From positions 183,465 to 247,464 of the forward strand of contig CAVVCH010000053.1 in the NCBI GenBank assembly GCA_963746605.1: DNA of 64,000 bases. Reading direction: 5' to 3'. Positions 3,915 through 43,478 of the stretch are shown here, in pieces (within the stretch, counting starts at the first letter, position 1; each line of letters starts with the position of its first letter). The notes beneath the pieces are model-generated. The model was given only the letters and a program-made list of their open reading frames with translations. It had not been told where the DNA came from and did no database searches. The stretch is from an uncultured delta proteobacterium (lineage in GTDB: Bacteria; Desulfobacterota; RBG-13-43-22). Both the position numbers and the translations under genes were made by a program.

Positions 3915-5735
3915 ATGGGAAAGGCCTCCCGAGAATTCATCGTTCTGACGGTGCTCCTCCTCTACGCGATCACCGCCACCTATCCTCTGATTGTTCATCT
4001 CTTTGATCGCCTGCCGGGATGGCCCGGAGACAATCTGTATTTTCAGTGGGAATTATGGTGGTTTAAACGGGCGATCCTCGACCTTAAGATCAGCCCTTTC
4101 ACCTGTCCGGACCTCTATTATCCGGCGGGGATGGACCTTTCCCGGGATGAAGTGACCCCATCCAACACCCTCCTGGGGCTTCCCTTGACGGCCCTTTTCG
4201 GCCCGACCGCGTCTTATAACCTCCTGCTCCTGGTTTCCTTTGTGCTCACCGGGTACGGTATCTACCGGATCGTTTTCGAAGGAACCGGCAATCGCTGGGC
4301 CGGATTGCTGGCCGGGATCGCCGCCTCCCTCGCGCCCTACCGGATGGCCCATTTGGCCGGACATTTGAATCTAATGGCAACCCAATGGATCGTGCTGACC
4401 CTGCTTTTTTTGGGGCGGTGGTTTAAGGATCAACGTCCCGGCGCCATGGTCCTGGCCGGCCTGTTCTTCGCCCTCAACGGCCTGGCCGCCTGGTACTATT
4501 TTTATATCGGGACCTTCACTGTGGGCCTCTACCTGCTGATAAGGTCCTGGCCTTTAGGACGATTCTGGAGGCAGCGCCGGGCCTGGTGGGGATTGCTTTT
4601 GTTTGGATTGATTTCCCTGGTGCTGGTTTTGCCTTTTGCCCTGCCCATGCTGGAATTAAGAGACCAGGGTCTGCTGGAACGGTCGATTTCCGGCCTGGAG
4701 GCCTTCGGGGCCAATCCCACAAATTTTTTTCTGCCCAACCCCTGGCATCCCCTCTGGGGAAATTTAACCTGGAAGATTTTCCCTTCCCAGTGGGGGTCGG
4801 TGGTGGAGCAAAACCTGAGCCTGGGGGGGACGGTATTGCTCCTGGCTTTTCTGGGAGCGGTGGTTTCTCGCCGGAATCGGGAAGTCCGGCCCTGGCTTTT
4901 TCTGGCGGTGATCAGCGCGATTTTAGCCATGGGGCCGGTGCTCAAGTGGAACAATCACCGCTGGGAATTCCATCTCCCGGCCCTGGCGGTTCAATGGGCC
5001 GAACAGACGGGAGTACCCTCTTTCCTGGATCGCTGGGTGGACCCCCAATACGGTGAGGCCATACGCTCCGGAAAGGGGTTTGTCCCCCTGCCCCTGATGC
5101 TGTGTTACGCCCTGGTGCCGCTGACCTCGTCCATGCGGGCTTTAGTGCGGTTTGGCTGGATTACCTTTCTCTCGGTGAGTGTCCTGGCCGGGTACGGAGT
5201 CCACTGGCTGCTCTCGAAAACAACCGGCCGCCCGGTCCTGACCAGGGGGTTCCTGGCCCTGGGCTTCATCCTGATCCCGTTGGAACTCTGGACCCAGATT
5301 CCGAAATGGACCTCCACGACCCCCCGGCCGGTCGATCTATGGCTGGCAACACAGCCCCGACCGTCGGCCGTGATCGAGTACCCTTTTTTGGATAATTTTT
5401 CCGCCCGGCTCATGCTCTCCCAGACCGTTCATCAGCAGCCCCTGATTATGGGAGGGCTCCCGCCTTCTTTTCATCCGGAAGAATTATATCAAAGAAGCGA
5501 GCGACTGAAGGATTTCCCTTCCCCGGCCGGGATCGAGGCCCTGCGGGGCTGGGGTGCCCGCTATATTCTGGCCACCCCTGTCCGTTTTCCCGGCGAGCCG
5601 AGTTGGCAGGAATTCAGGAACAAACTGACCGGATTCCCGGAGGTCCGGCTGGTGAAAGAAATCAACGGCGTCTGGATTTATGAATTAGAATTCGGGAAAC
5701 GTAAGGGGAAATATTCTTCAGGAAAGGAGCCATAA
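3915..5735 (+). CDS. large polytopic membrane protein (606 aa), possibly a membrane glycosyltransferase / YfhO-like
   Basis: At least 12 hydrophobic segments, with conserved-looking N-terminal D/E and W-rich loops. The family assignment is tentative. Confidence 0.6.
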   Translation: MGKASREFIVLTVLLLYAITATYPLIVHLFDRLPGWPGDNLYFQWELWWFKRAILDLKISPFTCPDLYYPAGMDLSRDEVTPSNTLLGLPLTALFGPTASYNLLLLVSFVLTGYGIYRIVFEGTGNRWAGLLAGIAASLAPYRMAHLAGHLNLMATQWIVLTLLFLGRWFKDQRPGAMVLAGLFFALNGLAAWYYFYIGTFTVGLYLLIRSWPLGRFWRQRRAWWGLLLFGLISLVLVLPFALPMLELRDQGLLERSISGLEAFGANPTNFFLPNPWHPLWGNLTWKIFPSQWGSVVEQNLSLGGTVLLLAFLGAVVSRRNREVRPWLFLAVISAILAMGPVLKWNNHRWEFHLPALAVQWAEQTGVPSFLDRWVDPQYGEAIRSGKGFVPLPLMLCYALVPLTSSMRALVRFGWITFLSVSVLAGYGVHWLLSKTTGRPVLTRGFLALGFILIPLELWTQIPKWTSTTPRPVDLWLATQPRPSAVIEYPFLDNFSARLMLSQTVHQQPLIMGGLPPSFHPEELYQRSERLKDFPSPAGIEALRGWGARYILATPVRFPGEPSWQEFRNKLTGFPEVRLVKEINGVWIYELEFGKRKGKYSSGKEP

Positions 5736-9531: not shown

Positions 9532-10491
9532 ATGTCGGAAGGCGAACTTTATGATTGCATTATTGTAGGCGGCGGACCGGGCGGCCTTACGGCAGGCATC
9601 TATGCCATGCGGGCGGCCATGAAAACGGTTCTTATCGAAAAAGGGATGCCCGGCGGCCAGGTGGCCTTAACCAAAGGTGTGGAGAATTATCCAGGGTTTA
9701 TTGAAATAGGGGGGTTTGAGCTCTGCGATAGGTTTTTGAAGCACGCCGAATCGTACGGCCTGGAAATGATCCAAGACGAAGCGGTGTCCGTTGAACCGGG
9801 GATGGAGTCCCATTCCGTCAGGCTGGCCGATGGCCGTCTGCTGCAGGCCCACGCTTTAATTCTGGCAGCCGGCGGCAGCGCGCGAAAACTTGATATTCCC
9901 GGGGAAAACGATAACTTCGGCAAAGGCGTTTCGTACTGTGCCACCTGCGACGGGTTCTTCTTCAGGGATAAAACCGTCGTAGTCGTAGGAGGAGGGGATA
10001 CGGCCCTGGAGGATGCCCTCTACCTGTCAAAAATCACGCAGCGGGTCTACCTGGTCCATCGACGGGACGCTTTCCGGGGAAGCCGAATCCTTCAGCAACG
10101 CGTTCAGGCCGAACCCAAGATCGAAATCCTTTTCAACACCGTGGTAACCGAAATTATCTCCGATGAAGCCGGGGTTCAAGCCGTTTCCCTCAAAAATGTT
10201 AAGACGGATGAAAGAAGAAAGCTTCCCACAGACGGCGTCTTCATTCTGGCGGGTTTTTCTCCCAACAACCGGCTCGCGCCGGCAGGCGTTAAAATCAATC
10301 AAGCCGGCTACGTCATAACGGATGAAAAATGCGAGACCGCTATTCCGGGCATCTTCGCGATCGGCGACCTGAGGCAAAAATACGCCAATCAGATTGTGAT
10401 CGCCGCTGCCGACGGCTGTACGGCCGCCCTGGCCGCAGCGCACTATGCCGAGATCAAGAAGGGGAGCGCGGCTTGTCTGATCACTCCTTGA
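9532..10491 (+). CDS. trxB: thioredoxin-disulfide reductase
   Basis: FAD motif GGGPGG, redox-active CATCDG, and NAD(P)H motif VVGGGDTALEDA. Confidence 0.9.
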   Translation: MSEGELYDCIIVGGGPGGLTAGIYAMRAAMKTVLIEKGMPGGQVALTKGVENYPGFIEIGGFELCDRFLKHAESYGLEMIQDEAVSVEPGMESHSVRLADGRLLQAHALILAAGGSARKLDIPGENDNFGKGVSYCATCDGFFFRDKTVVVVGGGDTALEDALYLSKITQRVYLVHRRDAFRGSRILQQRVQAEPKIEILFNTVVTEIISDEAGVQAVSLKNVKTDERRKLPTDGVFILAGFSPNNRLAPAGVKINQAGYVITDEKCETAIPGIFAIGDLRQKYANQIVIAAADGCTAALAAAHYAEIKKGSAACLITP

Positions 10492-10538
10492 ACGATGATT
10501 TTTCCGGGATCGGAGAGAGGCGCGAGGGCGTAAGTCGC

Positions 10539-10570
10539 AAGGCGTAAGGAGCGGTAAACCCCTTACGCCT
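10539..10570. other. stable stem-loop between convergent genes (AGGCGTAAGG-N10-CCTTACGCCT)
   Basis: 10-bp perfect stem flanked by partial direct copies of the arms. No U-tract on either strand, so not a canonical intrinsic terminator. Confidence 0.35.
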
Positions 10571-10588
10571 CACGCCCTTACGGTAGTT

Positions 10589-11849
10589 CTAGAACCTCCA
10601 GGTCAAACCGAATTCATAGCTCATTTCGGTCAGATTGGATTCCAGGCGGACCGGCTGGCCGTTGAGGGCTGTGCCGTTTTCACTGATCGACTCCCCGAAC
10701 CCATAGGTATAGCCGATATGGGCGGAAAAGCTACTGGTAAATTCGTAGCCGATCCCGAAAGTGATGTGACTCTTGGTAATGGCCGGAAAGCCGATGATCC
10801 GGAAGGTTTCGTAGTAATAGGTGGGCATAAATTTGCCCTGGACCTCTTTGGGATTTAATCCGGCAAAATTATTGTGCTGTTTGACCGGGTTATTGGCATA
10901 GTTGTAGCCGGCCCGCAGGATCAATTTATTCGTGGCCTTGTATTGGACCCCCAGCCCGAAGACCCACTGGTCTTCCCAGTCGAAATCCTTGTAGCCGGCG
11001 GCGTTGGCCCAGTTGATCCATTTGCCGTCGACTTCGACCATCAGCTTCCCCGGCAGGACATCGTAGGAAACGCCCAGTCCGGCCTGCTGCGGGGATTCCA
11101 GGTCAAAATTATCCTTGCTGCCGTTCCCGTCGAAATCCCTGACATTGGAATAGGTGATTTTCTGGGGGGTGGTGTAGGTGGCACCCAGGGAGAGACGGTC
11201 CAGCGGATGGTAGATCATCACCCAATTGGGCTCCAAAACCGTAGGCGGAGGAGGTGCCGGCGCCCAAATCGAGCATGGAGTAGTCCAGATGGGCGGCCAG
11301 GCCGAAGGAAAATTGGCTGTTCGGCTGGAAAGCTATGGACGGGGCAAACTTCATGGTCGACAACTGCGTGTATTCGCCGGCCACCAGGGGAAAACCGCCG
11401 AAACCGGCGAACTTTTGCTGATCCAGGCTGGTATTGCGATAATCCACGCCCAGTCCGGTAACGCCGTAGGCCGCCAGACCGAAACGCCAGAGGGGCAGGG
11501 TTTTGGTGATCGGGGTGGACAGGCCGATGGCCGGGATGGCATAAACGTTGTTGGCGCTGTCCGCCTTGAAGGTATTGCCGCCGAGCGTTACTTTGCCGTC
11601 CACCTTAGGGGTGAAGAGGGTCCCGGCAAAATTGAATTCCGATCCCGGGCAATAGGGTCCGAAGCACATGGCGGCCGGGTTGGAAAACACGGCGCTGATG
11701 GCATCCTGGGGCGCGGCGATGCCCACACCGCCCATGGCCCGGGAGGCCGGTCCGATGCCGATTAAGTTGTCCCCATTGGTGGCCAGGGCCAGGGAAGCCC
11801 AGAGAACCACCAGTCCCACCATTACACTCATTCTAAAGATCTTTTTCAT
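10589..11849 (-). CDS. FadL/OmpP1/TodX-family outer membrane transport protein, single apparent frameshift near 11215-11225
   Basis: N-terminal signal peptide (ORF 11109-11849) and a C-terminal beta-barrel ending in a terminal Phe (ORF 10589-11236). The two halves join as ...AYGFGAQLG / VMIYHPLDRL..., which is a one-base indel in a G-run. Confidence 0.7.
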
Positions 11850-11927
11850 TCCCTTTTCTCCTTTCTTCCTTTCGATCTTAAGAGGTTGGAAATTTTATAT
11901 AGATACTCCTGCCGGCGGCCTAGCCCT

Positions 11928-13181
11928 CTACGGAATCAGGGCGTCGGCCACCAGGGAGGAGAGGAATTTTACTTCCACGCCCATCTGGTAGTGGTCGTTT
12001 AAATCGCTGAGCTGGGTATGGCAATTTTCGCAGGCCGTGGCCAGAATCTGGGCCCCGGTTTTTTTGACCTGGTCCACCTTGACCGTAACCGATTTCATGC
12101 GAAAGTCGTGGGTATCCTCCCCCAGGGCCACCAGACCGCCGCCGCCCCCGCAGCACCAGTTGTAACGCACATCGTCGGTCATATCGACAAAACGACTGGT
12201 CAACTGGTTCAGGATATACCGCGGCTCATCGATGACTCCGGCGTTGCGGGCCAGTTGGCAGGGGTCATGATAGGTGATGATTTCCTTCCACTTGTCCTTA
12301 TCCACCCGGATGCGCCCCTCCCGGAGGTAGCGGGCGTGAACTTCCGTAATGGAACTGACCTTAAAAGGCTGTTTCCCGGAAAGCTGCTTCATCACCCGGA
12401 AAGCAGTGCCGCACTCGCAGATGCAGACCTCCTTCACCTTCAGCCTGTTGGCTTCATTCAGGATTCGGTCCAGGATCAGCTTGGTCCGGGTGGGATCGCC
12501 CACGAAGGCCCCGAAATTGACGGCTTCGAAGAAACTTAAGGTCCAGTTCTCCTTGGCGGCGTTGAAGATCGCGGCGGCCGGCACTATGGAGTGAGCCCCG
12601 GCCAGGGCCACGTAGAGCAGGTCCGCCCCTTCCACGTCCACCGGGATAGGGGTTTGGCCGGCTTCCCCCTTCCATTTTTCAACCACCTGGGCCTCCAGGT
12701 TTTTGATCCCGGTTAAGAAACTTTCCTTATAGAACTCCAGGGATTTTCCTTTTTCAACGGAAGTATCGGCCAGCATGGAGAGGATCTCCGGCTCGGTTCC
12801 GGCTCCGACCAGCAGCAGTTTGGCGATCGACATCAGCATCTGGGTATCGATACCGTGGGGGCAGTAGACCATGCAGCGCCGGCAGCCGGTGCAGGAGTAA
12901 GCGGCCTCCGATAACTCCTGGAGGGCCATTTCGGTCAATTCCTTGCTTTCTCCCCAGGCCGGAAAGGCCTTCCCTTGGCCCTTGAAATATTTTTTATAAA
13001 TCCGCCGGACGATCTCGTGGCGGTAGGCCGAAATATAGCGGACCTGACCCATCGACTGGTAGGCGTGGCAGGCTTCGGTGCAGATGCCGCAGCGGGAACA
13101 GGTCTCCAGGTAAAACCGCATAGCCTCATTGAGTTTGGATTGAAAGAGTTTCAGTAAATCGTCGCGCGTTTTTTCATCCAT
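11928..13181 (-). CDS. HdrD/DsrK/GlpC-like iron-sulfur protein with two 4Fe-4S motifs and two CCG domains
   Basis: CSRCGICTEACH and CTGCRRCMVYCP ferredoxin motifs. CCG-domain cysteines (YHDPCQ, NWCCGGGGG, CENCHTQ). Confidence 0.8.
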   Translation of the reverse strand: MDEKTRDDLLKLFQSKLNEAMRFYLETCSRCGICTEACHAYQSMGQVRYISAYRHEIVRRIYKKYFKGQGKAFPAWGESKELTEMALQELSEAAYSCTGCRRCMVYCPHGIDTQMLMSIAKLLLVGAGTEPEILSMLADTSVEKGKSLEFYKESFLTGIKNLEAQVVEKWKGEAGQTPIPVDVEGADLLYVALAGAHSIVPAAAIFNAAKENWTLSFFEAVNFGAFVGDPTRTKLILDRILNEANRLKVKEVCICECGTAFRVMKQLSGKQPFKVSSITEVHARYLREGRIRVDKDKWKEIITYHDPCQLARNAGVIDEPRYILNQLTSRFVDMTDDVRYNWCCGGGGGLVALGEDTHDFRMKSVTVKVDQVKKTGAQILATACENCHTQLSDLNDHYQMGVEVKFLSSLVADALIP

Positions 13182-13183
13182 GG

Positions 13184-13895
13184 CTATCCCCTCCTTAATT
13201 TGTTCATGGGAATAGTTAAAAAAGAATGCATGATCTTGCTGAAGGGAAAGAGCATGATGAACAGGTTGGCAAAGAAGACATGCAGGACCAGCATAAAGGA
13301 ATGCCCGGTCTGGTAGGCGGCATCCGGTACTTGGGGTCGCAGGAACAACAGGCTGGTGAAATAGGTCTTATAATCGCCGGGCCCCAATTCCCCGTAGTTG
13401 TACCAGCGGCGGGCCCAGTCCATCTGGGCGCCAAACAGTACGGTCAGAAACAATAGAATCAGCAGATAATAGTCTTCCGGCGCGGAGAGGTCCCTGACCG
13501 GCGAGGCGAAGCGCCGGAAGAGAAAGAAGAGCAGGGCGAGGGACAAAACCAGCCCGACAAAGCCTTTTCCCAGAAATATCTCGTGGGGGATGAACTGGAA
13601 GGCATTAAAGCCCTCGAACAATTCCAGGTGGCCGATGATCAACAGCAGCAGGGCGATGTGGAAGGACATCAGGAAAACCCAGTGCAGCGGTTTATGGCGC
13701 CGGACCGAGGGCATTAGAAAGGAATCCGCCAGGGCCCAAAACCACGTAGGATTTTTTTGCGGATAGATCTGCAGGGTGCTGGCCGGATTTTTCGGGCTGC
13801 CGAAAATCTTGGCCAATTTAGCTACGTTCCCACGATAAAGACCAGGAAAGCCAGGTAGACCATGGGCACCAGGATCAGGTAGTAAATCGTTTTCA
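13184..13895 (-). CDS. NarI/DsrM/HdrE-like membrane cytochrome b subunit, apparent frameshift near 13825-13840
   Basis: Multiple transmembrane helices with conserved His (HWVFLMSFHIALL, HSFMLVLHVFF). An ATG at 13895 with an RBS encodes a first helix MKTIYYLILVPMVYLAFLVFIVGT that stops at TAG. The body continues in the +1 frame, where the ORF table begins it at a TTG (13816). Confidence 0.6.
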
Positions 13896-14024
13896 TAGGT
13901 TTCCCCTATCGCTTAAAGAGAAGGATCATCTTTCCCGCGAACGGATTTTTCACGTTCTTCCCTCCGTCAGAGAAGGGCCCCGTCCCCGGATTCCGGGGAC
14001 GGGGGTTGGGGAAGATGAGGAGGT

Positions 14025-14267
14025 TTACTTGAGGCGTTTGATGTAAATCTTGATGACCCCGTCACCCTGGTCGGTTTTCAGGATTTCGTTACCGCTGGTC
14101 CGGGCCCAGGCCGGAAAATCCGCCAGGGCCCCGGGATCCGTGGTCAGGGCCTCGATGACCTGGCCGATCTGGATGTCTTTAATCCCCTTGCTGACCTTGA
14201 CCACCGGCATGGGGCAGGGAAGTCCTTTCAAATCCATTACTTTGTCGACGTTGATTGCTTCAGCCAT
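14025..14267 (-). CDS. tusA: TusA-family sulfur carrier protein
   Basis: Conserved CPxP motif (LPCPMPVVK). 80 aa. Confidence 0.85.
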   Translation of the reverse strand: MAEAINVDKVMDLKGLPCPMPVVKVSKGIKDIQIGQVIEALTTDPGALADFPAWARTSGNEILKTDQGDGVIKIYIKRLK

Positions 14268-14287
14268 TTTTTTTCTCCTTCTTGATT

Positions 14288-14839
14288 TTAAAGAAATAAG
14301 GTAATCTTGCTGTTGATGGCATGCTCCAGAAAGGTGGCCACCCCGACGTACTCCACGCCGGGGTAATCGATCATTTCCTCATGCTTGAAACCCATGAGGT
14401 CCATGGACATTTCACAGATGAATATCTTGACCTCCAGTTCGGCGGCCATTTTGATAAACTCTTCCAGCGAAGCCACATTTTTCTTTTTCATGAGCGATTT
14501 CATCATGGCCGTTCCCATCCCGCCCATGTTCATCTTGGACAGCTTCACCTTTCCGGCGCCCTTAGGAAGCATGGATCCGAACATGGTCCCCATCAGGTCC
14601 TTGCCGCCCACACTTTTGTTTTTATCCCGCAGTATCGGCGTACCCCAAAAAGTGAAAAACATGATCACTTCCAGGCCCATAGCCACGGCCCCGGTGGCGA
14701 TGATAAAAGCGGCCAGGGCTTTGTCCAGATCCCCGCTGAAAACGATCATGGAGAGTTTTTCCTCCGGCTGGGAACCGGACAGGCCTTCCACCCGGGCTTT
14801 TAATTCGGCTAACTGTTTTTCCATCTCTTCCATCTGCAT
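14288..14839 (-). CDS. DsrE/DsrF/DsrH-like family protein (DsrE2-type)
   Basis: N-terminal coiled segment followed by a DsrE-like fold region (LSMIVFSGDLDKALAAFIIATGAVAMG...CEMSMDLMG). Adjacent to tusA, as in known TusA-DsrE2 pairs. Confidence 0.65.
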   Translation of the reverse strand: MQMEEMEKQLAELKARVEGLSGSQPEEKLSMIVFSGDLDKALAAFIIATGAVAMGLEVIMFFTFWGTPILRDKNKSVGGKDLMGTMFGSMLPKGAGKVKLSKMNMGGMGTAMMKSLMKKKNVASLEEFIKMAAELEVKIFICEMSMDLMGFKHEEMIDYPGVEYVGVATFLEHAINSKITLFL

Positions 14840-14875
14840 AACCTCCCCCTTTCAATGAATCGGGTTATTTTATTA

Positions 14876-14894
14876 TTGTTAATATCGTTAACAA
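14876..14894. promoter_or_regulatory. palindrome TTGTTAATATCGTTAACAA between marR and the dsrE-like gene; candidate MarR operator
   Basis: Inverted repeat TTGTTAA/TTAACAA. A second GTTAACAA copy lies at 15392-15399 upstream of marR. Confidence 0.4.
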
Positions 14895-14909
14895 AAACAA
14901 CCAAACTAT

Positions 14910-15389
14910 CTAAACCAATTGTTGTTTAATCACCTCCATGGAAGACCGCAGGGTTTCCAGGGAGGCCAATACATTTTTTCGGTCGTCTTCTTTCAGTTCC
15001 TGCAACAACTGGTGGTGGAGATCCTTTAAAAACACATCGAGGGCCTCGACTTGTTTTTGCCCCTCCGGGGTCAGGCTGATTAAAATCACCCGAGCATCTT
15101 CCGGGTCTACAACCCGCTGAGCCAATCGTTTATTCACCAGTCCATCAATAATCTTGGTGATCCGGCTTTTGGCCACTTCCAGCTTTTGAGCCAACCCCTT
15201 GACCGTCAGGTAACGCTCTTCCTTAAAGAGTAACAGGCATTTCATCTCCGCTTGGGTCAGACCAAACTTATGGGCCTGGTAGAGGGTCTTTTCCTGGCAG
15301 CACTGGGTAATTTCCCCAATCAGGTCTTGAAGTTTTTGGGCCTGGTAGCGGGTTACCTGTTCTTTAGAAGTGGGGTAAAAATCGTTCAT
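14910..15389 (-). CDS. MarR-family transcriptional regulator
   Basis: Winged-helix-turn-helix region (LTVKGLAQKLEVAKSRITKIIDGLVNKRLAQR). 159 aa. Heads the minus-strand cluster. Confidence 0.85.
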   Translation of the reverse strand: MNDFYPTSKEQVTRYQAQKLQDLIGEITQCCQEKTLYQAHKFGLTQAEMKCLLLFKEERYLTVKGLAQKLEVAKSRITKIIDGLVNKRLAQRVVDPEDARVILISLTPEGQKQVEALDVFLKDLHHQLLQELKEDDRKNVLASLETLRSSMEVIKQQLV

Positions 15390-15552
15390 GGTGTTAACAA
15401 AATAGAACCAACCCAGAGCCTTGTCAAGAAAAAAAATGGGGTCCGGGCATTTTTTTGGACCTCTTTCCGGGGCAGCGGCTGGAAATTAGATTGATTTTAG
15501 GAGAACGGGAGCTTATTAGTTACGAAACAGGATTGCAACCCAACCGAATTCC

Positions 15553-17304
15553 ATGACCGCTTACCGTATTTTAATTCCCTTTCTGCGACCGGGGTACTTT
15601 CCCTTGGCCGCGGGGATCTGCCTGCTGGTGCTGGTGGATTTTCTCCAACTGCTTATCCCCCGCTTTATCAAGGGCGCCGTGGATGCCTTGTCTTCCGGCC
15701 GGGCCACGACCGGGACCCTGACGCGCACCCTGGCCCTGATCCTGGGCGTTTCCCTGATCATCTTCGGTTTTCGTTATCTGTGGCGGCGCCTGATCTTCGG
15801 TCAGGCCCGGCGGATCGAGGAGGCCCTGCGAAACCGATTGATCGGTCAGTTCTTCCTCCTTTCTCCGGCTTTTTTTCAACGCCGGCCGATCGGCGATCTC
15901 ATGGCCCACGCCACCAATGATATGGAAGCGGTGCGGATGGCCCTGGGAATGGGGCTGGTGTCTCTGGTGGATTCGTTTTTTTTAGGCTGCGCGGCCATCG
16001 GGTTTATGCTGTACATCAGCCCCGGATTGACCGCCGCCGCCCTGGTGCCTATGCCGGTGGTGGCCTACCTGACCTATCGTTTAAGCCGGGTATTTCATAA
16101 AAAATTTGAATCGGTGCAAGTCCTTTTTTCCGGATTGATGGAAACCGTGCGGGAAGGCCTGGTAGGTATCCTGGTCGTCAAAGCCTACAACCTCCAACCG
16201 CGGGAATTGGGCCGCCTTTCCGAGCTCAGTGGAAAATATCTGGATAAAAATTTGCAGTTGGCCCGGATTACCGGGACGCTTTTTCCCTTGTCTCTGCTGT
16301 TGACCAACCTGAGTCTGGCCGTGGTTATCTGGCTGGGCGGGGTTCAGGTCTACCAGGGAAAGATCACCACCGGCGATTTTGTGGCCTTCATCACCTACCT
16401 GGGCATGCTGGGATGGCCGGTGATGGCCCTGGGCTGGGTAGTCAACCTGTTGAAACGAGGAGGCGTATCCCTGGAGCGGATCGGACGACTGCTGGATGAA
16501 AAACCTGAAATCGCCGATCGTCCCGGATTAACAGCACCGCCCTCACCCGTTCGGAAAATATCCATCGCTCATCTTTCCTTTAGTTATCCGGGGGAGAAGC
16601 AGCCGGTGTTGAAGGACCTGAGTCTGGAAATAGGCGCCGGACAGCAAATCGTGTTTACCGGCCGAACCGGCTCCGGAAAGACCACCCTGGCGCAACTGCT
16701 GGTCCGGCTCTATGATCCTCCGGAGGGGACCATTGCGCTGGACGGCCAGGCAATCCATAAAATACCGCTGGGATATTTACGGAACACCATATCCTTAGTT
16801 CCCCAGGTACCATTTCTTTTTTCCGACACCTTGCGGGCCAACCTGCAAATGGCCGATCCCGAGGCCGGAGAGGCCCGATTGTGGGAGGCCCTGTCTCTGG
16901 CCGCTCTGGATAAGGAAGTCAGGGCCTTCTCCGAGGGGTTGGAGACGGTGGTGGGGGAGAAAGGGGTGCTCCTTTCGGGAGGACAGCGACAACGGTTGGC
17001 CTTGGCCCGGGCCTTGCTGTTCAATCCGCCTTTTTTGATCCTGGATAACACCCTGGCCTCGGTGGACCTGTCCACCGAGCGACAGATCCTCGAGGGCCTG
17101 AAGTCCAGGCGAAAGGGATTGACCACTATTTTTATTTCTCACCGCCTGGTGGGGCTGGAGGCTGTGGATTGGATTTTTCTTTTTGAGGCGGGTCGGATCG
17201 CCGAATCCGGGCAACACCAGGCCCTGATGGAACAAGACGGCCTCTATGCCCGGCTCTACCGGCGGCAGCGTTTGGAAAAGGAAATCCGGGAGGGAGTTTT
17301 TTGA
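15553..17304 (+). CDS. ABC transporter permease/ATP-binding protein (type I exporter)
   Basis: Six-helix transmembrane domain, Walker A GRTGSGKTT, signature LSGGQRQRLALARAL, Walker B ILDN. Confidence 0.9.
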   Translation: MTAYRILIPFLRPGYFPLAAGICLLVLVDFLQLLIPRFIKGAVDALSSGRATTGTLTRTLALILGVSLIIFGFRYLWRRLIFGQARRIEEALRNRLIGQFFLLSPAFFQRRPIGDLMAHATNDMEAVRMALGMGLVSLVDSFFLGCAAIGFMLYISPGLTAAALVPMPVVAYLTYRLSRVFHKKFESVQVLFSGLMETVREGLVGILVVKAYNLQPRELGRLSELSGKYLDKNLQLARITGTLFPLSLLLTNLSLAVVIWLGGVQVYQGKITTGDFVAFITYLGMLGWPVMALGWVVNLLKRGGVSLERIGRLLDEKPEIADRPGLTAPPSPVRKISIAHLSFSYPGEKQPVLKDLSLEIGAGQQIVFTGRTGSGKTTLAQLLVRLYDPPEGTIALDGQAIHKIPLGYLRNTISLVPQVPFLFSDTLRANLQMADPEAGEARLWEALSLAALDKEVRAFSEGLETVVGEKGVLLSGGQRQRLALARALLFNPPFLILDNTLASVDLSTERQILEGLKSRRKGLTTIFISHRLVGLEAVDWIFLFEAGRIAESGQHQALMEQDGLYARLYRRQRLEKEIREGVF

Positions 17305-17545: not shown

Positions 17546-19349
17546 TTGCGAGGTCATCACTATAATATGCCTCCCAATGACTTCGGTTATTTTGAAGGGG
17601 AGCACTTGGGCAAGCCGTACGATTTGGGGTTGCTCAAGAAGGTCTTTCCTTATTTGTGGCCCTGGCGATTTCGATGGCTGCTGGTCATGGTACTGACCCT
17701 GGCCGGGACCGCCCTGGACCTGATCCCCCCCTACCTGACCAAACTGGCTATTGACCAATTTATTCTTAAGGGGCGGATCCAGGGCCTGGAGTTCTTGGCT
17801 TTATTGCTACTGGTGGTCCTGGTTTTGGGCTATGGTTTCCAATATGCCCAGGTGGTGCTCATGGAACAATTGGGCCAGCGGGTGATGCATGCCCTGCGCC
17901 TGGACTTGGTGGCCCATCTCCTGTCGCTGCCGCTGCCCTTCTACCAGGAGCACCCGGTGGGACGGCTGGTTACCCGGGCTACCAACGATATCGAGAACCT
18001 CAACGAGATGGTCAAGTCACTGCTCTCCACCCTCGTTAAAGATATCCTGCTGTTCTTGGGGATCATGGGGGTCCTTTTCTATTTAAATTTTAGGTTGGCC
18101 CTGATCACCTTTGCCGTCCTGCCGATCATCTTTGTGGCCGCCCGTCTTTTCAGCCGGAAGGCCCGGGACGCCTTCCGGGATTTGCGTCGCTGGGTAGCCC
18201 ACCCTGAATTCCTTTATCCAGGAAACCCTCTCCGGCATGACGCTCATCCAGCTCCTGAAAAAGGAAGCGATGAGGGCGCAGGACTTCCGATGGGTGAATC
18301 ACCAGACCTATTTGGCCGGGATGAAGCAGATTCAGGTTTTTGCGTTGTTCATGCCGCTCATGGAATTGATTTCGGCCGGGGCCGTGGCCCTGCTGATCTG
18401 GTACGGCGGCGGTCAGGTCATTCGCCAGACTCTCACCCTGGGCGCCCTGGTGGCCTTCCTGTCGTACATCCAGATGTTTTTTCGTCCCCTGCGGGAGTTG
18501 ACCGAAAAATATAGCGTCCTGCAGTCGGCCATGGCCTCTCTGGAGCGAATTTTTGCCCTGATGGAGGAAAAGGCCGAGGAGGGACCGGATGAAACTTTGT
18601 TCCGGCGACCGACCCGGGTCCAGGGGGAGATTACCTTCGATCGGGTCAGTTTTGCCTATCAAGCCGAGGATTGGGTGCTCCAGGACATTTCTTTTACCAT
18701 CCGCCCCGGAGAAGCGGTGGCTATCGTCGGGATGACCGGGGGGGGTAAGACCACCCTGATTCAGCTCCTGGAGGGCTTCTATACCCCTCAGAAGGGACAA
18801 ATCCGGATCGATGGGCTCCCCATCCAGTCCTTTCCCAAAAAATTCTTGAGGACCTTGGTGGGGTTGGTTCCCCAGGAGGTCTTTCTCTTCGCCGGGGACC
18901 TGAAAGAAAATATTTTATTGGCGGATAAGGAAACCCTTTCTTCCCGGGACGATCCGGAAAACATATGGAAGGAAATCCAGCCCCTTTTCCAAGACTTCCA
19001 GGGAAGAAAGGTCGACACCCTGTCCTCCGGAGAACGGCAGTTGGTGGCCATGGCCCGGGTTTTAGCCCGGGACCCGTCGATCCTGGTTCTGGATGAGGCC
19101 ACCGCCCACCTGGACGCCCAGACGGAAGAAAAGGTTCAGACGGTCCTGGGAAAGCTGCTGGCCGGCCGGACCTCGCTGGTCATCGCCCACCGGCTGTTTA
19201 CCCTCCGCCAGGCCTCTCGGATTATGGTGCTGCACCAGGGCCGCCTGGTCGAGGAAGGGACCCACGCGCAACTCATGGAGCGGAAAGGGTACTATTACCG
19301 GTTATACCAGTTGCAGTATAACGAGGTTCAAAATGGGGGGGGTTATTGA
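17546..19349 (+). CDS. ABC transporter permease/ATP-binding protein, apparent frameshift near 18200-18212
   Basis: Transmembrane domain in ORF 17546-18514 and the rest in ORF 18237-19349. The expected ...RRWVA-LNSFIQETLSGMTLIQLL... is split. Walker A GMTGGGKTT, signature LSSGERQLVAMARVL. Probable heterodimer partner of the upstream ABC gene. Confidence 0.8.
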
Positions 19350-32482: not shown

Positions 32483-35018
32483 TTAGATTTTTACATCCGT
32501 TGTCAAGGACAAATTCTCAGAACAATGGTTGTAAAAATCTAATTCCAGGGGATTTACGTTCCAAATCTTGCCGGCATATTCCAGGATGGAGCGGTCGCTG
32601 GAGAAGAGGCCGGTTCTCGCCGTGTTCAGGATGGAATGACGGGCCCATGCCTCGTGGTCGGCATACACCTTCCCGACCCGGTCCTGGGCTTCCAGATACG
32701 CGCGGAAGTCGGCCAGGACCAGGAAATAGTCTCCCTGGTCCAGGAGGGCCTGCACCAGGGGACGGAACAGGCCGGGCTCTTCAGGCGAGAAAAACCCCTC
32801 TCCGATAAGATCCAGCGTTCCCTTAAGCTCCGGGTCCGCCGCGACCACCGCCCGGGGAGCATAGCCCCCGGAACGGAGGGCGCCGACTTCTTCGGCGTTC
32901 AAGCCGAAAATAAAAATGTGGTCCCGGCCGACTTCCTCCATGATCTCGATGTTCGCGCCGTCCAGGGTGCCGATGGTTAAGGCCCCGTTGAGGGCAAACT
33001 TCATGTTGCCCGTCCCGGAAGCCTCCATCCCGGCGGTGGAGATCTGTTCGGAGAGATCGGCCGCCGGGATTACCTTCTCCGCCTGGGAGATGCAGTAGTT
33101 CGGCAGGAAGATGACCCGCAGCCGTCCCCGGATATCCGGATCGTTGTTGATTACCTGGGCCACGGCATTGACCAGTTTGATGGAGAGTTTGGCCTGGTAA
33201 TAAGCGGGCGCGGCTTTGCCGCCGATGAAGATGGTTCGGGAGGGGGCGGAATAATCGGGATCCGATTTGATCCGGCGATAGAGCGCGACGATGTGGAGGA
33301 TATTCAGGAACTGCCGTTTGTATTCGTGGATCCGTTTGACCTGCACATCGAAAAGGGTATCCGGATTCACCCCCAGACCGATCTTGCGGAGCACGTACCG
33401 GGCCAGGCGCTTCTTATTCTCCCTTTTGGTCTCTTGCCAGACTTTCCGGAATTCGGGGTCCTCCGCCAGGGGTTCGAGTCGGCGTAACTGTTGCAAATCC
33501 TTCACCCACTCCGGGCCGATGGCCGAGGTGATCAACCTGGTCAGGGCCGGATTGGCCTGGACCAGCCAGCGTCGAGGCGTGACCCCGTTGGTCACGTTCC
33601 GGATGCGGCCCGGGAAGATCCGATCGAAGTCTCGAAAGAGCTGTTCCCGGAGAATCCGGGAGTGCAGTTTGGCCACGCCGTTCACGGCATGTCCTCCCAC
33701 CACGGCCAGGTGGGCCATGCGGACCCGACCGCACCGGCCCTTCCTGGATCAGGGAGACCCGGGCCGGCAGCTCCGGATCCTGGGGGTGTTCGGTTCTGAC
33801 CCCATCCAGAAAACGCCGATTGATCTCGTAGATGATCTCCAGGTGACGGGGCAGCAGCCGCCCCAGTACGTCCACCGGCCAGGTTTCCAGGGCTTCGGGC
33901 AAAACCGTGTGGTTGGTATAGGCAAAGGTGTGCCGGCAAATGGACCAGGCGTCATCCCAGCCCAGCCCCTCTTCGTCCATCAGTTGCCGCATCAATTCGG
34001 GGATGGCGATGGTGGGATGGGTATCGTTCAGTTGAATGGCCACGGCCTCCGGAAAGCCGGACCATTCCCGGTGTTGTTTTTTGAACTTCCGGAGAATATC
34101 CTGAATCGTGGCCGAGACAAAGAAATACTGCTGCTTCAGCCGCAGCTCCCGGCCCTGGGCGATTTCGTCGCTGGGATAGAGAACTTTGGAAATGTTCTCA
34201 CTCAACACTTTGGCTTCGACGGCGCCCACGTAGTCACCCTGGTTAAACTCCTGGAGGTTGAATTCCCGGCTTGATTTAGCCACCCAGAGGCGCATATTGG
34301 TGACATACTCCCCCCCGTAGCCCGGCACCAGGATGTCTGAGGCCATGGCCAGAACCGATTCGGTATCCACCCAGCGGTGGCGCAGGCGGCCCTGGGCATC
34401 GTGGTAAGGCTCCGAGCGCCCGTAATAATGAACGGGATACAGCACCTCCGGCCGCTGGATTTCCCAGGGGGTGCCTTCGCGCATCCAATTGTCGGATTGC
34501 TCGTGCTGGTACCCGTTGACGATATGCTGGTAGAAAATGCCGTAATCGTACCGGATTCCGTAGCCGTAGGCCGGGAGCTGCAGGGTGGCCATGGAATCCA
34601 GAAAGCAGGAGGCCAGTCGGCCGAGGCCGCCGTTTCCCAGACCCGCGTCCCATTCCTCCTCCTCGATGTCCTCCAAGTCGTAGCCCAGACTGTGCAGGGC
34701 CTCCTGGGCCTCTTCTTCGATGCGGAGACTGGAGAGGTAGTTCCGTAGAAACCGGCCGGGGAGAAACTCCAGGGACAAGTAGTACACCCGCTTGGCCAGC
34801 AGTTCGTAGCAGGCCCGTTGGGTTCTCAGCCAGCGTTCGACCAGCCGGTCCCGCACGGCGGAGCAGAGTCCCAGGAAAACCTGACGGCGGTCCGCCAGAT
34901 CCGGATCATTGCCTTGGGTGAACTGGATGTGTCTATGGATATCTATCCGGATCCGGTTTTGAGCCAGCGAATCGCTCACGGGAATCCCTCCATTCGTAGG
35001 TGTCGTCTCGGACGACAA
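32483..35018 (-). CDS. glgP: glycogen phosphorylase (GT35, long form), apparent frameshift near 33720-33745
   Basis: N-terminal half (ORF 33414-35018: LSLEFLPGR, GLGNGGLGRLA) and C-terminal half (ORF 32483-33718: MAHLAVVGGHAVNGVA, EASGTGNMKFALNG). The join is at ...IQEG / RMAHLAVV... Confidence 0.85.
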
Positions 35019-42937: not shown

Positions 42938-43402
42938 ATGAGCCCTTTGCCCTCCAAGAAGTTGTGGTTCTACGCCATTATCCTCGCGGTTATCCTGGGA
43001 GCCGGCGGCCTGTTTGTCATGTTCGGCCCGCCGCAACTCTACGCCAAAACCGGAACCCCTGAATACTGCGGAAGCTGCCACGTCATGGAAACGGAGTACG
43101 AGGCCTGGCGCCATGCCGGTGCCCACCGCCGCATCAAGTGCATCGACTGCCACCTGCCGAACGACAGTAAGGTGAAAAATCTGACCTGGAAAAATATCGA
43201 CGGCATGACGGACATGTTCAAGTTCTATACCGGCCAGGTCCGCGAGAATCTACGCATCTCCGAGCGGGGCGCCAGGGTGGTCCAGGAAAACTGCAAACGC
43301 TGTCACGAGGAGACCATCTCCCGGGTTACGGTGGACCGGAACTGCTGGGAATGCCACCGGCGGTTGTCCCATAAATTGACCGGGGTCAGGGATACGCTTT
43401 AA
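42938..43402 (+). CDS. nrfH: NapC/NirT-family tetrahaem cytochrome c, nitrite reductase quinol-oxidising subunit
   Basis: N-terminal transmembrane helix. Four CxxCH motifs (CGSCH, CIDCH, CKRCH, CWECH). Confidence 0.9.
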   Translation: MSPLPSKKLWFYAIILAVILGAGGLFVMFGPPQLYAKTGTPEYCGSCHVMETEYEAWRHAGAHRRIKCIDCHLPNDSKVKNLTWKNIDGMTDMFKFYTGQVRENLRISERGARVVQENCKRCHEETISRVTVDRNCWECHRRLSHKLTGVRDTL

Positions 43403-43478
43403 TTTGATGTTTTGAAACCAATAATAATCAATAATCAATTGTTAATTTTTAATTGTCAATTTTGAAAAGGAGAGGGTT

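Follow-up and report, generated by a model that had tools for sequence, protein, structure and literature searches.

DsrMKJOP is a menadiol:DsrC-trisulfide oxidoreductase whose DsrMK pair joins a dihaem NarI-type cytochrome b to a cytoplasmic subunit with two [4Fe-4S] motifs and one CCG motif, encoded in that order; DsrK, TmcB and HmcF share the single CCG motif and a conserved cysteine in (G/T)ECGH, and HdrD has two CCG motifs (PMC10861901). TmcBC and HmcEF, from Desulfovibrio-type membrane complexes, are protein pairs of the same type, and HdrDE of methanogens combines a membrane cytochrome b with a CCG catalytic subunit, a disulfide being reduced by a membrane quinone-like carrier. Small sulfur carriers occur in other settings: in the Staphylococcus aureus cst operon the thiol-based repressor CstR controls TusA and DrsE_2 domains along with a persulfide dioxygenase. 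In Bacteroides fragilis, BmoR is a MarR-type repressor of BF638R_0572, a CoA-disulfide-reductase/rhodanese/TusA/DrsE_2 fusion (PMC6158253). The rhd-tusA-dsrE2 relay of Allochromatium vinosum and the TusA/DsrE3 cascades of sHdr systems place TusA beside a one-cysteine DsrE-family carrier, with a genetic tie to an Hdr/Dsr-type redox enzyme (PMC3397948; bioRxiv 10.1101/2023.12.18.572138; PMC4175335). Among Desulfobacterota, TusA and a DsrE-like protein are found in the YTD cluster (yedE/yeeE-tusA-dsrE-like-chp1-chp2) of sulfur disproportionators and cable bacteria, for which handling of imported sulfur has been proposed (PMC12998232, PMC13047784, PMC13293266).

The locus described here lies in a 64-kb window, by which we mean the whole stretch of DNA analysed. 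Its minus strand carries, in order, marR, a DsrE2B-like gene, tusA, a 12-bp hairpin, a cytochrome b gene, a gene for a DsrK-like CCG protein and a FadL-type gene. An earlier note on this DNA had bounded the cluster at 11928..15389; the five genes it named lie where it placed them, and HMM searches matched all the proposed families (DsrE-like, TusA, NarI-like and CCG), but the unit extends past 11928 into the FadL-type gene (10589-11849). We hold with moderate confidence that this is a self-regulated operon combining two small sulfur carriers, an outer-membrane channel and a membrane haem/iron-sulfur enzyme. Its host is a sulfate-reducing bacterium.

The DsrE2B-like gene (14288..14839, minus strand) encodes 183 aa with a PF13686 DrsE_2 match at 1e-54, and the nearest solved structures are 3pnx (1.1e-33) and 2qs7 (6e-19). 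The protein is of true DrsE_2/DsrE2B type; its single cysteine, Cys142 (FICEMS), is invariant in 75/75 orthologues, and no other DrsE_2 gene was found in the genome. The adjoining tusA (14025..14267, minus strand; 80 aa, PF01206 at 2.2e-21) has Cys18 in C-P-M-P, present in 70/70 orthologues; ligand conservation here and below was scored over 48-75 orthologues, depending on the protein. The carriers and their link to a redox enzyme resemble the rhd-tusA-dsrE2 and sHdr cascades, but the cassette carrier is of the soluble DsrE2B/3pnx type rather than the two-helix membrane DsrE2A (101 bits against NCBIfam DsrE2A, cut-off 210), the enzyme is a membrane DsrMK-like pair rather than soluble sHdr or DsrAB, and the host is an anaerobic sulfate reducer. 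The YTD cluster is comparable in its carriers and proposed role; however, the cassette has a membrane redox pair and a FadL-type channel instead of chp genes, and no YedE/YeeE gene was found in it or anywhere in the genome (94% complete). Both BmoR and CstR govern similar carrier domains, but alongside a soluble CoA-disulfide reductase/rhodanese fusion and a persulfide dioxygenase, respectively, in contrast to the quinone-linked membrane complex proposed here. The one DsrE2B assayed in vitro, that of Metallosphaera cuprina, reacted with none of the sulfur compounds supplied and failed to bind TusA (PMC4175335), which counts against the carrier role proposed for the cassette protein.

The NarI/DsrM-like dihaem cytochrome b gene (13184..13896, minus strand) would encode about 237 aa if whole, with about five hydrophobic helices, and its ORF at 13184-13816 matches PF02665 at 1.3e-13. 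The family had been recognized correctly in the earlier note, but the frameshift and true start were overlooked: compared with relatives L017 and L068, the gene lacks a base between 13825 and 13824, which puts the first membrane helix in another frame. The 210-aa NarI-like ORF, which opens at a TTG, is spurious, and the gene starts at ATG 13896-13894. Using the numbering of that ORF, His53, His63 and His197 are present in 59/59 orthologues and His179 in 58/59; the cytochrome b scores best against TmcC, at 36 bits for the window and 45 bits for the intact L017 orthologue. Next to it, the DsrK-like cytoplasmic iron-sulfur subunit (11928..13181, minus strand; 417 aa, PF02754 CCG at 5.6e-13) has two CX2CX2CX3C motifs, Cys257 in CECGT and one complete CCG motif (C308, C343, C344, C384, C387). 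All eight cluster cysteines, C257 and the five CCG-motif cysteines are each present in 48/48 orthologues. Dihaem ligands, two [4Fe-4S] motifs and a CCG motif bear out the proposed membrane pair.

In cofactor type, gene order and the ECG cysteine the pair resembles DsrMK, but it scores below the curated cut-offs for NCBIfam DsrK (253/400 bits) and for DsrM (33/300), and the DsrK-like protein is 28% identical to the genome's own DsrK. It has ECGT rather than ECGH, and its CCG motif still ends in CxxC, with Asp at this place in the genome's own DsrK; the cytochrome b is shorter (~237 vs. 342 aa), DsrJOP are lacking, and TusA/DsrE2 are the partners instead of DsrC. Compared with TmcBC and HmcEF, scores are again far below cut-offs (TmcB 223/735, HmcF 213/750) and cytochrome c subunit genes are lacking. 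In the tree, the DsrK-like proteins group on a single branch (SH-aLRT 99, 15 rows), and DsrK, TmcB and HmcF fall outside it. HdrDE is similar in architecture, but HdrD has two CCG motifs against one in the cassette protein (PMC10861901), and CoM/CoB chemistry is not expected in a bacterium.

The genome has dsrAB, three DsrC-family genes and a canonical DsrMK(J)O on contig C61, so that the cassette might be an accessory arm of Dsr metabolism: TusA/DsrE2 would act on DsrC, loading or unloading it, and the DsrK-like enzyme would be an additional reductase of DsrC trisulfide. A dsrAB-dsrC-dsrMK operon of Desulfurella amilsii includes DsrE-like genes, whose levels go up when thiosulfate is being reduced (PMC6378623). 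We regard the accessory-arm reading as very unlikely, given the separate clade of the DsrK-like protein and the occurrence of the cassette where Dsr proteins were not found: among five carrier genomes from outside Desulfobacterota, DsrA was found in 0/5 and a DsrC-family gene in 1/5. As the earlier note had stated, DsrAB and DsrC genes are absent from the window, and also from its contig, dsrAB and DsrC being on another; an informal look at the examined loci revealed neither dsrC beside the cassette nor a conserved DsrC-sized partner gene. The cassette thus appears to occur independently of Dsr, in genomes in which DsrA and DsrC were not found.

The juxtaposition of these genes is a conserved cassette rather than a chance neighbourhood. 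With DsrE2 as the anchor, synteny was counted in 79 loci, the best of more than 556; they are mutually related, so that the following counts, restricted to loci with room, are not independent samples: TusA is nearby in 67/73, cytochrome b in 53/65, the DsrK-like gene in 46/57 and MarR in 49/73, and FadL is directly downstream in 26/50. DsrE2, TusA, cytochrome b and the DsrK-like gene occur together in 37 of 47 such loci, and all six genes in 20 of 47. Where the membrane genes are absent, the DsrE2-TusA pair adjoins a rhodanese and metallo-beta-lactamase fusion (L051, L059, L071), and an ArsR-type regulator replaces MarR in L072 and L078.

The FadL/Toluene_X-type outer-membrane channel gene (10589..11849, minus strand) has a signal-peptide-like N-terminus and one extra base near 11220; its intact orthologue in L017 has 419 aa (PF03349 at 4.7e-22). 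The cytochrome b and FadL genes are therefore each out of frame by one base in the assembly, which weighs against the oxidoreductase reading given below. If the changes were real and inactivating, the cassette in this organism would be a decaying remnant, a reading that we find highly improbable. Both frames are whole in close relatives and dsrA, elsewhere in the genome, is likewise split, so we read the changes as assembly errors. Besides these two cassette genes, at least five genes are split in this way, among them dsrA and, in the window, an ABC exporter (17546-19349) and glycogen phosphorylase (32486-35018), a pattern that fits assembly indels, and the remainder of both cassette genes is stop-free with 84-94% protein identity to L017. 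The missing cytochrome b base is present in contigs from two DNA runs and the extra FadL base is absent from one DNA-run contig, but these frame-restoring contigs are only 92-98% alike and may derive from other strains.

The gene marR (14910..15389, minus strand) encodes a 159-aa MarR-family repressor (PF12802 at 2.3e-08, PF01047 at 6.3e-08) that keeps C30 in 47/50, C31 in 50/50 and C51 in 46/50 aligned orthologues; C30 and C31 sit in QCCQE. Its promoter-like site (15399..15427, minus strand) matches 10/12 consensus positions, with -35 TTGACA (15427-15422), a 17-nt spacer and -10 TATTTT (15404-15399), and most relatives have TTGACA-N17-TATAGT/TATAAT immediately 5' of the marR ATG. Because the -10 lies 9 nt from the ATG and a Shine-Dalgarno sequence is absent, the mRNA is probably leaderless. 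Putative operator 1 (15384..15398, GTTAACACCATGAAC) overlaps the start codon and presumed +1, pointing to autoregulation; it contains GTTAACAC, the actual letters of the second site, which the earlier note had given wrongly as GTTAACAA. The other site, TTGTTAA-N5-TTAACAA, is exactly as described at 14876-14894, with putative operator 2 (14878..14892, GTTAACGATATTAAC) as its core. It covers the -35 and spacer of a dsrE2 promoter-like site (14867..14894, minus strand; -35 TTGTTA 14894-14889, 16-nt spacer, -10 TAAAAT 14872-14867) that is weak alone, its 9/12 consensus matches being equally common in shuffles.

Both sites share one 15-bp motif, GTTMAYNNNRTDAAC, found at only two places in the 64 kb, both flanking marR (4 matches with both strands counted, 0.10 expected, 4 reached in 0/100 shuffles). 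With at most one mismatch, it recurs upstream of marR in 43/45 loci and in the marR-dsrE2 spacer in 32/45, each against 2/622 random segments, although at operator 1 the right half is partly coding (Met-Asn) and its conservation is also constrained by coding. This footprint at both promoters supports the two palindromes as instances of a single operator motif; persulfides are a plausible signal for the MarR cysteines, but peroxides or electrophiles could equally be sensed.

Cysteine-bearing MarR repressors are classic peroxide sensors, and the cassette might instead be a thiol/peroxide stress system, in which an OhrR-like MarR senses (lipid) hydroperoxides, FadL handles hydrophobic peroxides, and a quinol-driven disulfide reductase keeps two thiol redox proteins, the DsrE2-like protein and TusA, in the reduced state. 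The JGI name of the DsrE2-like protein is "peroxiredoxin family protein", and work on BmoR and its TusA/DrsE_2 fusion has treated them as an oxidative-stress regulon (PMC6158253). Adjoining the cluster is a thioredoxin reductase gene (9532-10491; TIGR01292, 357 bits), but this neighbour is not conserved, with a TrxB match in 1/79 loci (L022; best 79 of more than 556). Since it is established that the TusA and DsrE families carry sulfur, each carrier here has one conserved cysteine with no resolving cysteine, and the pair recurs next to the rhodanese fusions, we consider a stress system improbable.

Between the carrier and membrane-complex genes, 20 nt 3' of the tusA stop, the hairpin of the earlier note is exactly as described (13978..14004, minus strand): a perfect 12-bp G+C-rich stem with a 3-nt loop, reading CCCCGTCCCCGG-AAT-CCGGGGACGGGG from 14004 to 13978. 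Within the surrounding sequence it folds with an MFE of -37.9 kcal/mol (z = -2.9), no T-run follows it, and it matched no Rfam family. Hairpins of -20 kcal/mol or lower occur within 70 nt after tusA in 29/67 loci vs. 5/130 control segments. It is a candidate attenuator or mRNA-stabilising element, and may reduce expression of the distal genes, most transcripts ending after tusA. In some relatives a T-run follows a similar hairpin; given this recurrence and the T-runs, the two halves may be uncoupled in expression.

Returning to the operon of carriers, channel and membrane enzyme, we give about even weight to its being a menaquinone-linked membrane oxidoreductase for sulfane sulfur on TusA/DsrE2, under a thiol-sensing self-repressor. 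The FadL-type channel would admit hydrophobic sulfur, S8 or organic polysulfanes, which DsrE2 and TusA would bind in the cytoplasm; the substrate would be zero-valent sulfur, in persulfide or polysulfide form, bound to Cys18 of TusA and Cys142 of the DsrE2B-like protein and not to DsrC. Menaquinol would be oxidised at the outer face by the NarI-like cytochrome b, and electrons would travel by way of two haems b and two [4Fe-4S] clusters as far as the noncubane cluster and Cys257 in the DsrK-like subunit. This subunit might reduce carrier-bound sulfur to sulfide much as DsrMK acts on DsrC trisulfide. A MarR dimer would sit on both palindromes, at its own leaderless start and the dsrE2 -35, until released by persulfidation or cross-linking of C30/C31 and C51, and the hairpin would keep carriers at a higher level than the membrane complex. 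With standard potentials of about -74 mV for menaquinone and about -270 mV for S0/HS-, sulfur reduction by quinol is unfavourable unless low sulfide or the membrane potential pulls it, and electron flow from sulfide-level sulfur to menaquinone is favoured.

The same machine might oxidise TusA/DsrE2 sulfane sulfur or thiols, giving, for instance, a carrier trisulfide or heterodisulfide, and reduce menaquinone, as an anaerobic sulfide/sulfur-oxidising or disproportionating input module. DsrMK-type modules take part in Dsr pathways of either direction, reductive or oxidative (PMC10861901, PMC10504309), the best-known TusA/DsrE relays are those of sulfur oxidisers (PMC3397948; bioRxiv 10.1101/2023.12.18.572138), and sulfur-oxidation capacity via another DsrE-type relay has been argued for sulfate reducers (PMC13293266). 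However, no downstream oxidising enzyme (DsrAB, sHdr or persulfide dioxygenase) is linked to the cassette, and, as DsrA was found in 0/5 Dsr-less carrier genomes, these would offer no known fate for the oxidised product; sequence does not tell the direction of electron flow, and we regard oxidation as doubtful.

For the preferred, reducing operation, the substrate, the sulfur trafficking and the direction of flow are suggested by family membership and gene neighbourhood, and the earlier reading of the module is supported in each part that could be checked computationally. Literature searches returned no description of the cassette, and the unit is widespread and apparently undescribed. Its membrane enzyme is kin of the last enzyme of sulfate respiration, yet distinct from it.

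Six genes run along the minus strand from position 15389 down to 10589 of the window, which belongs to contig C53 of a genome of 4.56 Mb (62 contigs, 94% complete). In order, they encode a MarR-family regulator (14910–15389; PF12802, PF01047), a DrsE_2/DsrE-family protein of 183 aa (14288–14839; PF13686 at 1e-54), TusA (14025–14267; PF01206 at 2.2e-21), a NarI-type cytochrome b (ATG at 13896, frame broken; PF02665 at 1.3e-13), a DsrK-like iron-sulfur protein of 417 aa (11928–13181; CCG domain and two 4Fe-4S motifs), and a FadL/Toluene_X outer-membrane channel (10589–11849, two overlapping ORFs). An earlier note had named the families of the first five genes, and profile searches matched all of them (PF12802/PF01047, PF13686, PF01206, PF02665, and the CCG domain); the DsrE-like gene is a genuine DrsE_2 family member (PF13686, 185 bits vs. 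a cut-off of 25). Two neighbors were rejected as members of the cassette: trxB (9532–10491; thioredoxin-disulfide reductase, TIGR01292 357 bits vs. a cut-off of 343), which is convergent with it and has a TrxB match in only 1 of 79 related loci, and the ABC exporter genes divergent from marR, which among the relatives are conserved in L017 and L068 alone, the two nearest ones. Elsewhere, the window holds genes for NrfH-like (NapC/NirT) and NrfA (cytochrome c552) proteins (42938–45008), which endow this Dsr-bearing genome with a capacity to ammonify nitrite. It also holds a 606-aa ORF without a Pfam family (3915–5732); another ORF, longer than 1449 aa and extending beyond the window edge (59652–63998), has UvrD-helicase and TPR-like matches.

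Relatives of the DsrE2-like protein number in the thousands; the best 120 are 72–94% identical, come from metagenomes, and carry source names such as “peroxiredoxin family protein” and “DsrE/DsrF/DrsH-like family protein.” When species-representative genomes were scanned, more than 556 stretches matched, and the best 79 loci were retained. Synteny in these was scored by tblastn with the window’s proteins, and a locus entered a count only if its DNA extended far enough on the relevant side. TusA lies 3′ of DsrE2 in 67 of 73 loci, MarR 5′ of it in 49 of 73, the cytochrome b in 53 of 65, the DsrK-like protein in 46 of 57, and FadL on the 3′ side in 26 of 50; all six genes occur in 20 of 47, fractions that describe top-ranked, mutually related loci, the best 79 of more than 556. 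The four core genes (DsrE2, TusA, cytochrome b, and DsrK-like) stand together in 37 of the 47 loci with room for them, so that the juxtaposition of sulfur carriers and membrane pair first seen in a single genome is a conserved cassette. Carriers are labeled Desulfobacterales, Desulfatiglandales, Desulfovibrionaceae, Desulfomicrobium, Desulfomonile, Spirochaetota, Leptospirales, and Aminicenantes. Sampling the window’s own phylum evenly (301 genomes) gave 53 genomes with a match at E ≤ 1e-20, 17 of them at 58% identity or more and the rest at 57% or less.

Departures from the full set were also found. Four loci (L035, L057, L066, and L092) have MarR, DsrE2, and FadL without TusA and the membrane pair, and a fifth (L063) has DsrE2 followed directly by FadL, lacking MarR as well; the minimal MarR-DsrE2-FadL form ties the DsrE2-like carrier directly to an outer-membrane channel. 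In three others, DsrE2-TusA without the membrane pair adjoins a fusion of rhodanese and metallo-beta-lactamase domains of about 380 aa (L051:5639–6799, L059:5694–6842, and L071:5751–6890), an architecture known from persulfide dioxygenase fusions. An ArsR-type regulator stands in the usual place of MarR in L072 and L078, and L018:4076–12156 contains the four core genes twice in tandem, then FadL, which may reflect either a true duplication or a fault of the assembly. As for extra conserved partners in the spirochaete loci, we found only small ORFs without a Pfam family 3′ of the DsrK-like gene, and upstream genes that vary between loci.

Both putative carriers keep an invariant cysteine. Cys142, the only cysteine of the DsrE2-like protein, is present in 75 of 75 orthologues. 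Identity with the membrane-bound DsrE2A of Allochromatium was rejected: that type (NF047629, A. vinosum; at least 210 bits) is described as having two transmembrane helices and two conserved cysteines (PMC4175335, PMC12998232), and the cassette protein scores 101 bits vs. 210, with one conserved cysteine only and one hydrophobic stretch. That stretch (residues 38–62) aligns with the core of a soluble structure, 3pnx, which is the nearest structural match (1.1e-33; unstudied), followed by 2qs7 (6e-19), named DsrE2B by Liu et al. (PMC4175335). The Pfam score, the active-site cysteine, and the likeness to 2qs7 place the protein in the DrsE_2/DsrE2B-like group. TusA scores 75.9 bits against PF01206 (cut-off 28.6) and has its Cys18 in 70 of 70 orthologues; C18, P19, and P21 are invariant in 31 aligned rows (C18-P-M/L-P), which bears out the Cys-Pro-X-Pro motif read earlier. 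Against the E. coli TusA equivalog it reaches 41 vs. a cut-off of 78, below the level of that identity.

The DsrK-like subunit belongs with DsrK, TmcB, and HmcF in its general design and is none of them in identity. According to Barbosa et al., members of this group share a pair of CX2CX2CX3C motifs, one CCG motif (CXnCCGXnCX2C), and a cysteine conserved in (G/T)ECGH (PMC10861901). In an orthologue alignment that includes the window, the corresponding features of the cassette protein, C28/31/34/38 and C97/100/103/107, the CCG motif C308, C343, C344, C384, and C387, and Cys257, are each present in 48 of 48 sequences, placing it in the group; the last reads CECGT, so that in contrast to (G/T)ECGH the cysteine is kept and the histidine is not. 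Identity as DsrK was rejected (NF045796, 253.2 bits vs. a cut-off of 400), as were TmcB (223 vs. 735) and HmcF (213 vs. 750). The genome’s real DsrK, only 28% identical to the cassette protein, scores 725.7 bits and is encoded on another contig, C61, with DsrM, DsrO, DsrC, and dsrAB; the dsrC gene that the earlier note had suggested looking for elsewhere is therefore there. In a quick IQ-TREE maximum-likelihood tree of 39 rows (15 cassette, 9 DsrK, 6 TmcB, and 5 HmcF/HmcF-like proteins, and four wrong ORFs, L096, L106, L110, and L123, on long branches), all 15 cassette rows group on one branch (SH-aLRT 99), separate from DsrK, TmcB, and HmcF/HmcF-like. Contig C61 also carries a third DsrK relative (108269–109525) that scores 481 bits with the HmcF model and 438 with the TmcB model, both below cut-off, and has one in-frame TGA, which could be a selenocysteine codon, a frame error, or the mark of a broken gene.

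The cytochrome b matches PF02665 with 51.6 bits (cut-off 22.9) and falls well below the DsrM (NF038037, 33 vs. 300) and TmcC (36 vs. 240) equivalogs. DsrM and NarI are recognized by four histidine haem ligands in helices 2 and 5. Numbered on a 210-aa ORF, His53, His63, His78, His172, and His197 of the cassette protein are each conserved in 59 of 59 orthologues (window included), and His179 in 58 of 59; the pairs 53/63 and 179/197 are 10 and 18 residues apart, as are the haem ligands of NarI. The intact orthologue in L017 has about five hydrophobic helices.

That 210-aa ORF, with its TTG start, was rejected as the whole gene, because an ATG lies at 13896 behind a GGGGAA box. From this ATG a hydrophobic stretch of 24 codons runs to a TAG, and the remainder of the cytochrome b is in another frame; one base is missing between 13825 and 13824. 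The FadL gene carries an additional base close to 11220. Assembly errors are pointed to by three observations: the cytochrome b frame is unbroken in L017 and L068 (94–95% protein identity); the missing base is present in contigs from two public DNA runs, X1 and X2 (one each, all the depth there), and the extra FadL base is absent from one X2 contig; and single frame changes likewise split an ABC exporter (17546–19349), a glycogen phosphorylase (32486–35018), and, on C61, dsrA (138831–140097), a sign of indel errors across the whole assembly. The run contigs that restore the frames are only 92–98% alike and may represent other strains, which leaves a small probability that both genes have truly been lost in this strain; we proceed on the reading of assembly error.

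The two halves of the FadL gene score 41.5 and 44.5 bits (PF03349), and the intact L017 orthologue 78.5 bits vs. a cut-off of 29.7, within the FadL/Toluene_X family. A literature search for FadL linked to sulfur returned nothing relevant; in the accessible part of one paper it is named in a figure legend only (PMC10092268). The recurrence of the FadL-type gene offers a fresh clue to how an outer membrane might be crossed by hydrophobic sulfur.

The palindrome proposed earlier as an operator (14876–14894) is real and proves to be one of two window copies of a 15-bp motif, GTTMAY-N3-RTKAAC, found only at 14878–14892 and 15384–15398 (0.10 matches expected by chance). The first copy overlies the -35 element, together with the spacer, of a promoter-like site 5′ of dsrE2. 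The second sits where a near-consensus promoter (TTGACA, 17 nt, TATTTT) meets the marR start, and its right half includes the ATG. Allowing one mismatch, the motif is present upstream of marR in 43 of 45 MarR loci and in the marR-dsrE2 spacer in 32 of 45, vs. 2 of 622 random segments matched for length and locus, a footprint that supports the palindromes as putative operators. Because, within 15384–15427, only 9 nt separate the marR -10 from the ATG and no ribosome-binding site is present, the marR mRNA seems to be leaderless; most relatives have TATAGT or TATAAT 7 nt before the ATG. The regulator itself has a matched winged-helix domain (PF12802, PF01047), and the conservation of Cys30 (47/50), Cys31 (50/50), and Cys51 (46/50) suggests a thiol-based switch.

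The stem-loop noted between tusA and the membrane genes is exact: 14004–13978, a perfect 12-bp stem with a 3-nt loop, 20 nt 3′ of the tusA stop, without a T-run. Its minimum free energy in context is -37.9 kcal/mol (z = -2.9), and at E ≤ 0.1 no Rfam family matched anywhere in 10400–15700, hairpin included. Within 70 nt 3′ of the tusA stop, 29 of 67 loci have a hairpin at or below -20 kcal/mol, vs. 5 of 130 control segments, and the hairpin is therefore a recurrent feature of this joint; a T-run comes after it in several relatives. Its role is most likely to lower or stabilize expression, such that the carriers would outnumber the membrane complex. In two public RNA libraries (X19 and X20), contigs match stretches of fadL, dsrK-like, the cytochrome b gene, tusA, and dsrE2; these Logan contigs are 90–99% like the window, derive mostly from relatives, and by their nature give no information on a transcript, its ends, or its level. 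One X19 contig spans dsrE2-tusA (14103–14518), which as a contig says nothing on co-expression; in another, 13909 is linked to 14003, so that 93 bases with the hairpin among them are left out.

The cassette is separable from the Dsr pathway. Among five carriers outside Desulfobacterota (four Spirochaetota and one Aminicenantes, of unstated completeness, one locus being on a 4.8-Mb contig), DsrA was found in none and a DsrC-family gene in one; the co-occurrence with DsrAB and DsrC taken as a mark of DsrK was not found there, in contrast to the window’s own genome, which has both. DsrC therefore cannot be the general substrate of the cassette enzyme, and TusA and DsrE2 are the obvious candidates. 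The absence of sHdr genes reported earlier holds among the 47 window ORFs, where a Pfam scan found none of HdrA/B1/B2/C1/C2 and LbpA beside the carriers, and membership in that system was rejected. So was membership in the YTD cluster, in which tusA and a dsrE-like gene accompany a gene for a transporter of the YedE/YeeE type (PF04143): PF04143 has no match in the genome (94% complete).

Our literature search found no published description of the cassette, and reviews beyond its reach may mention it. As far as the available portions of these papers go, the nearest published systems are all distinct from it: the YTD cluster (PMC12998232, PMC13047784, PMC13293266, PMC8528874), the relays of the rhd-tusA-dsrE2 and sHdr types (PMC3397948, PMC4175335, bioRxiv 10.1101/2023.12.18.572138), the dsr operon of Desulfurella, which includes DsrE-like genes (PMC6378623), and the regulon of BmoR (PMC6158253). 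With its established gene set, conservation, ligands and cysteines, candidate operators, and separation from DsrK and the Dsr pathway, the cassette is a real, conserved, and uncharacterised variant of the DsrMK/HdrDE enzyme type, coupled to a TusA/DsrE2B pair.

In the mechanism we envisage, sulfane sulfur on TusA/DsrE2 would be the substrate and menaquinol the electron source, MarR would sense reactive sulfur, and the FadL channel may carry hydrophobic sulfur species. Standard potentials favor electron flow in the oxidizing direction under standard conditions, and either direction is possible for the cassette. A bolder proposal, which we consider rather doubtful, is a new type of stand-alone, energy-conserving cytoplasmic sulfur reductase, in which FadL would admit hydrophobic S8 or organic polysulfanes, DsrE2/TusA would bind the sulfur as persulfide, and the DsrMK-like pair would draw on menaquinol to reduce that sulfur in a redox loop. 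Neither polysulfide reductase nor DsrAB/DsrC would be needed. If true, such a reductase would explain sulfur reduction in Dsr-less anaerobes, e.g., the spirochaete carriers, and would be a hidden S0 sink in sulfate reducers.

DsrMK-type enzymes are commonly seen as working for DsrC, and TusA/DsrE relays as belonging to sulfur oxidizers. The cassette couples a distinct DsrK-like clade with TusA and a DsrE2B-like carrier, in sulfate reducers and in anaerobes without detected DsrA. It is also tractable, having a clear 15-bp operator motif, three conserved MarR cysteines, and small soluble carriers, and related genes occur in MAGs labeled Desulfomicrobium and Desulfomonile, genera with cultivated members. 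If the carriers are indeed the substrate, the cassette would add a second quinone-linked route by which zero-valent sulfur is handled in anoxic habitats, with consequences for sulfur disproportionation, for cryptic sulfur cycling, and for how reactive sulfur species are tolerated.
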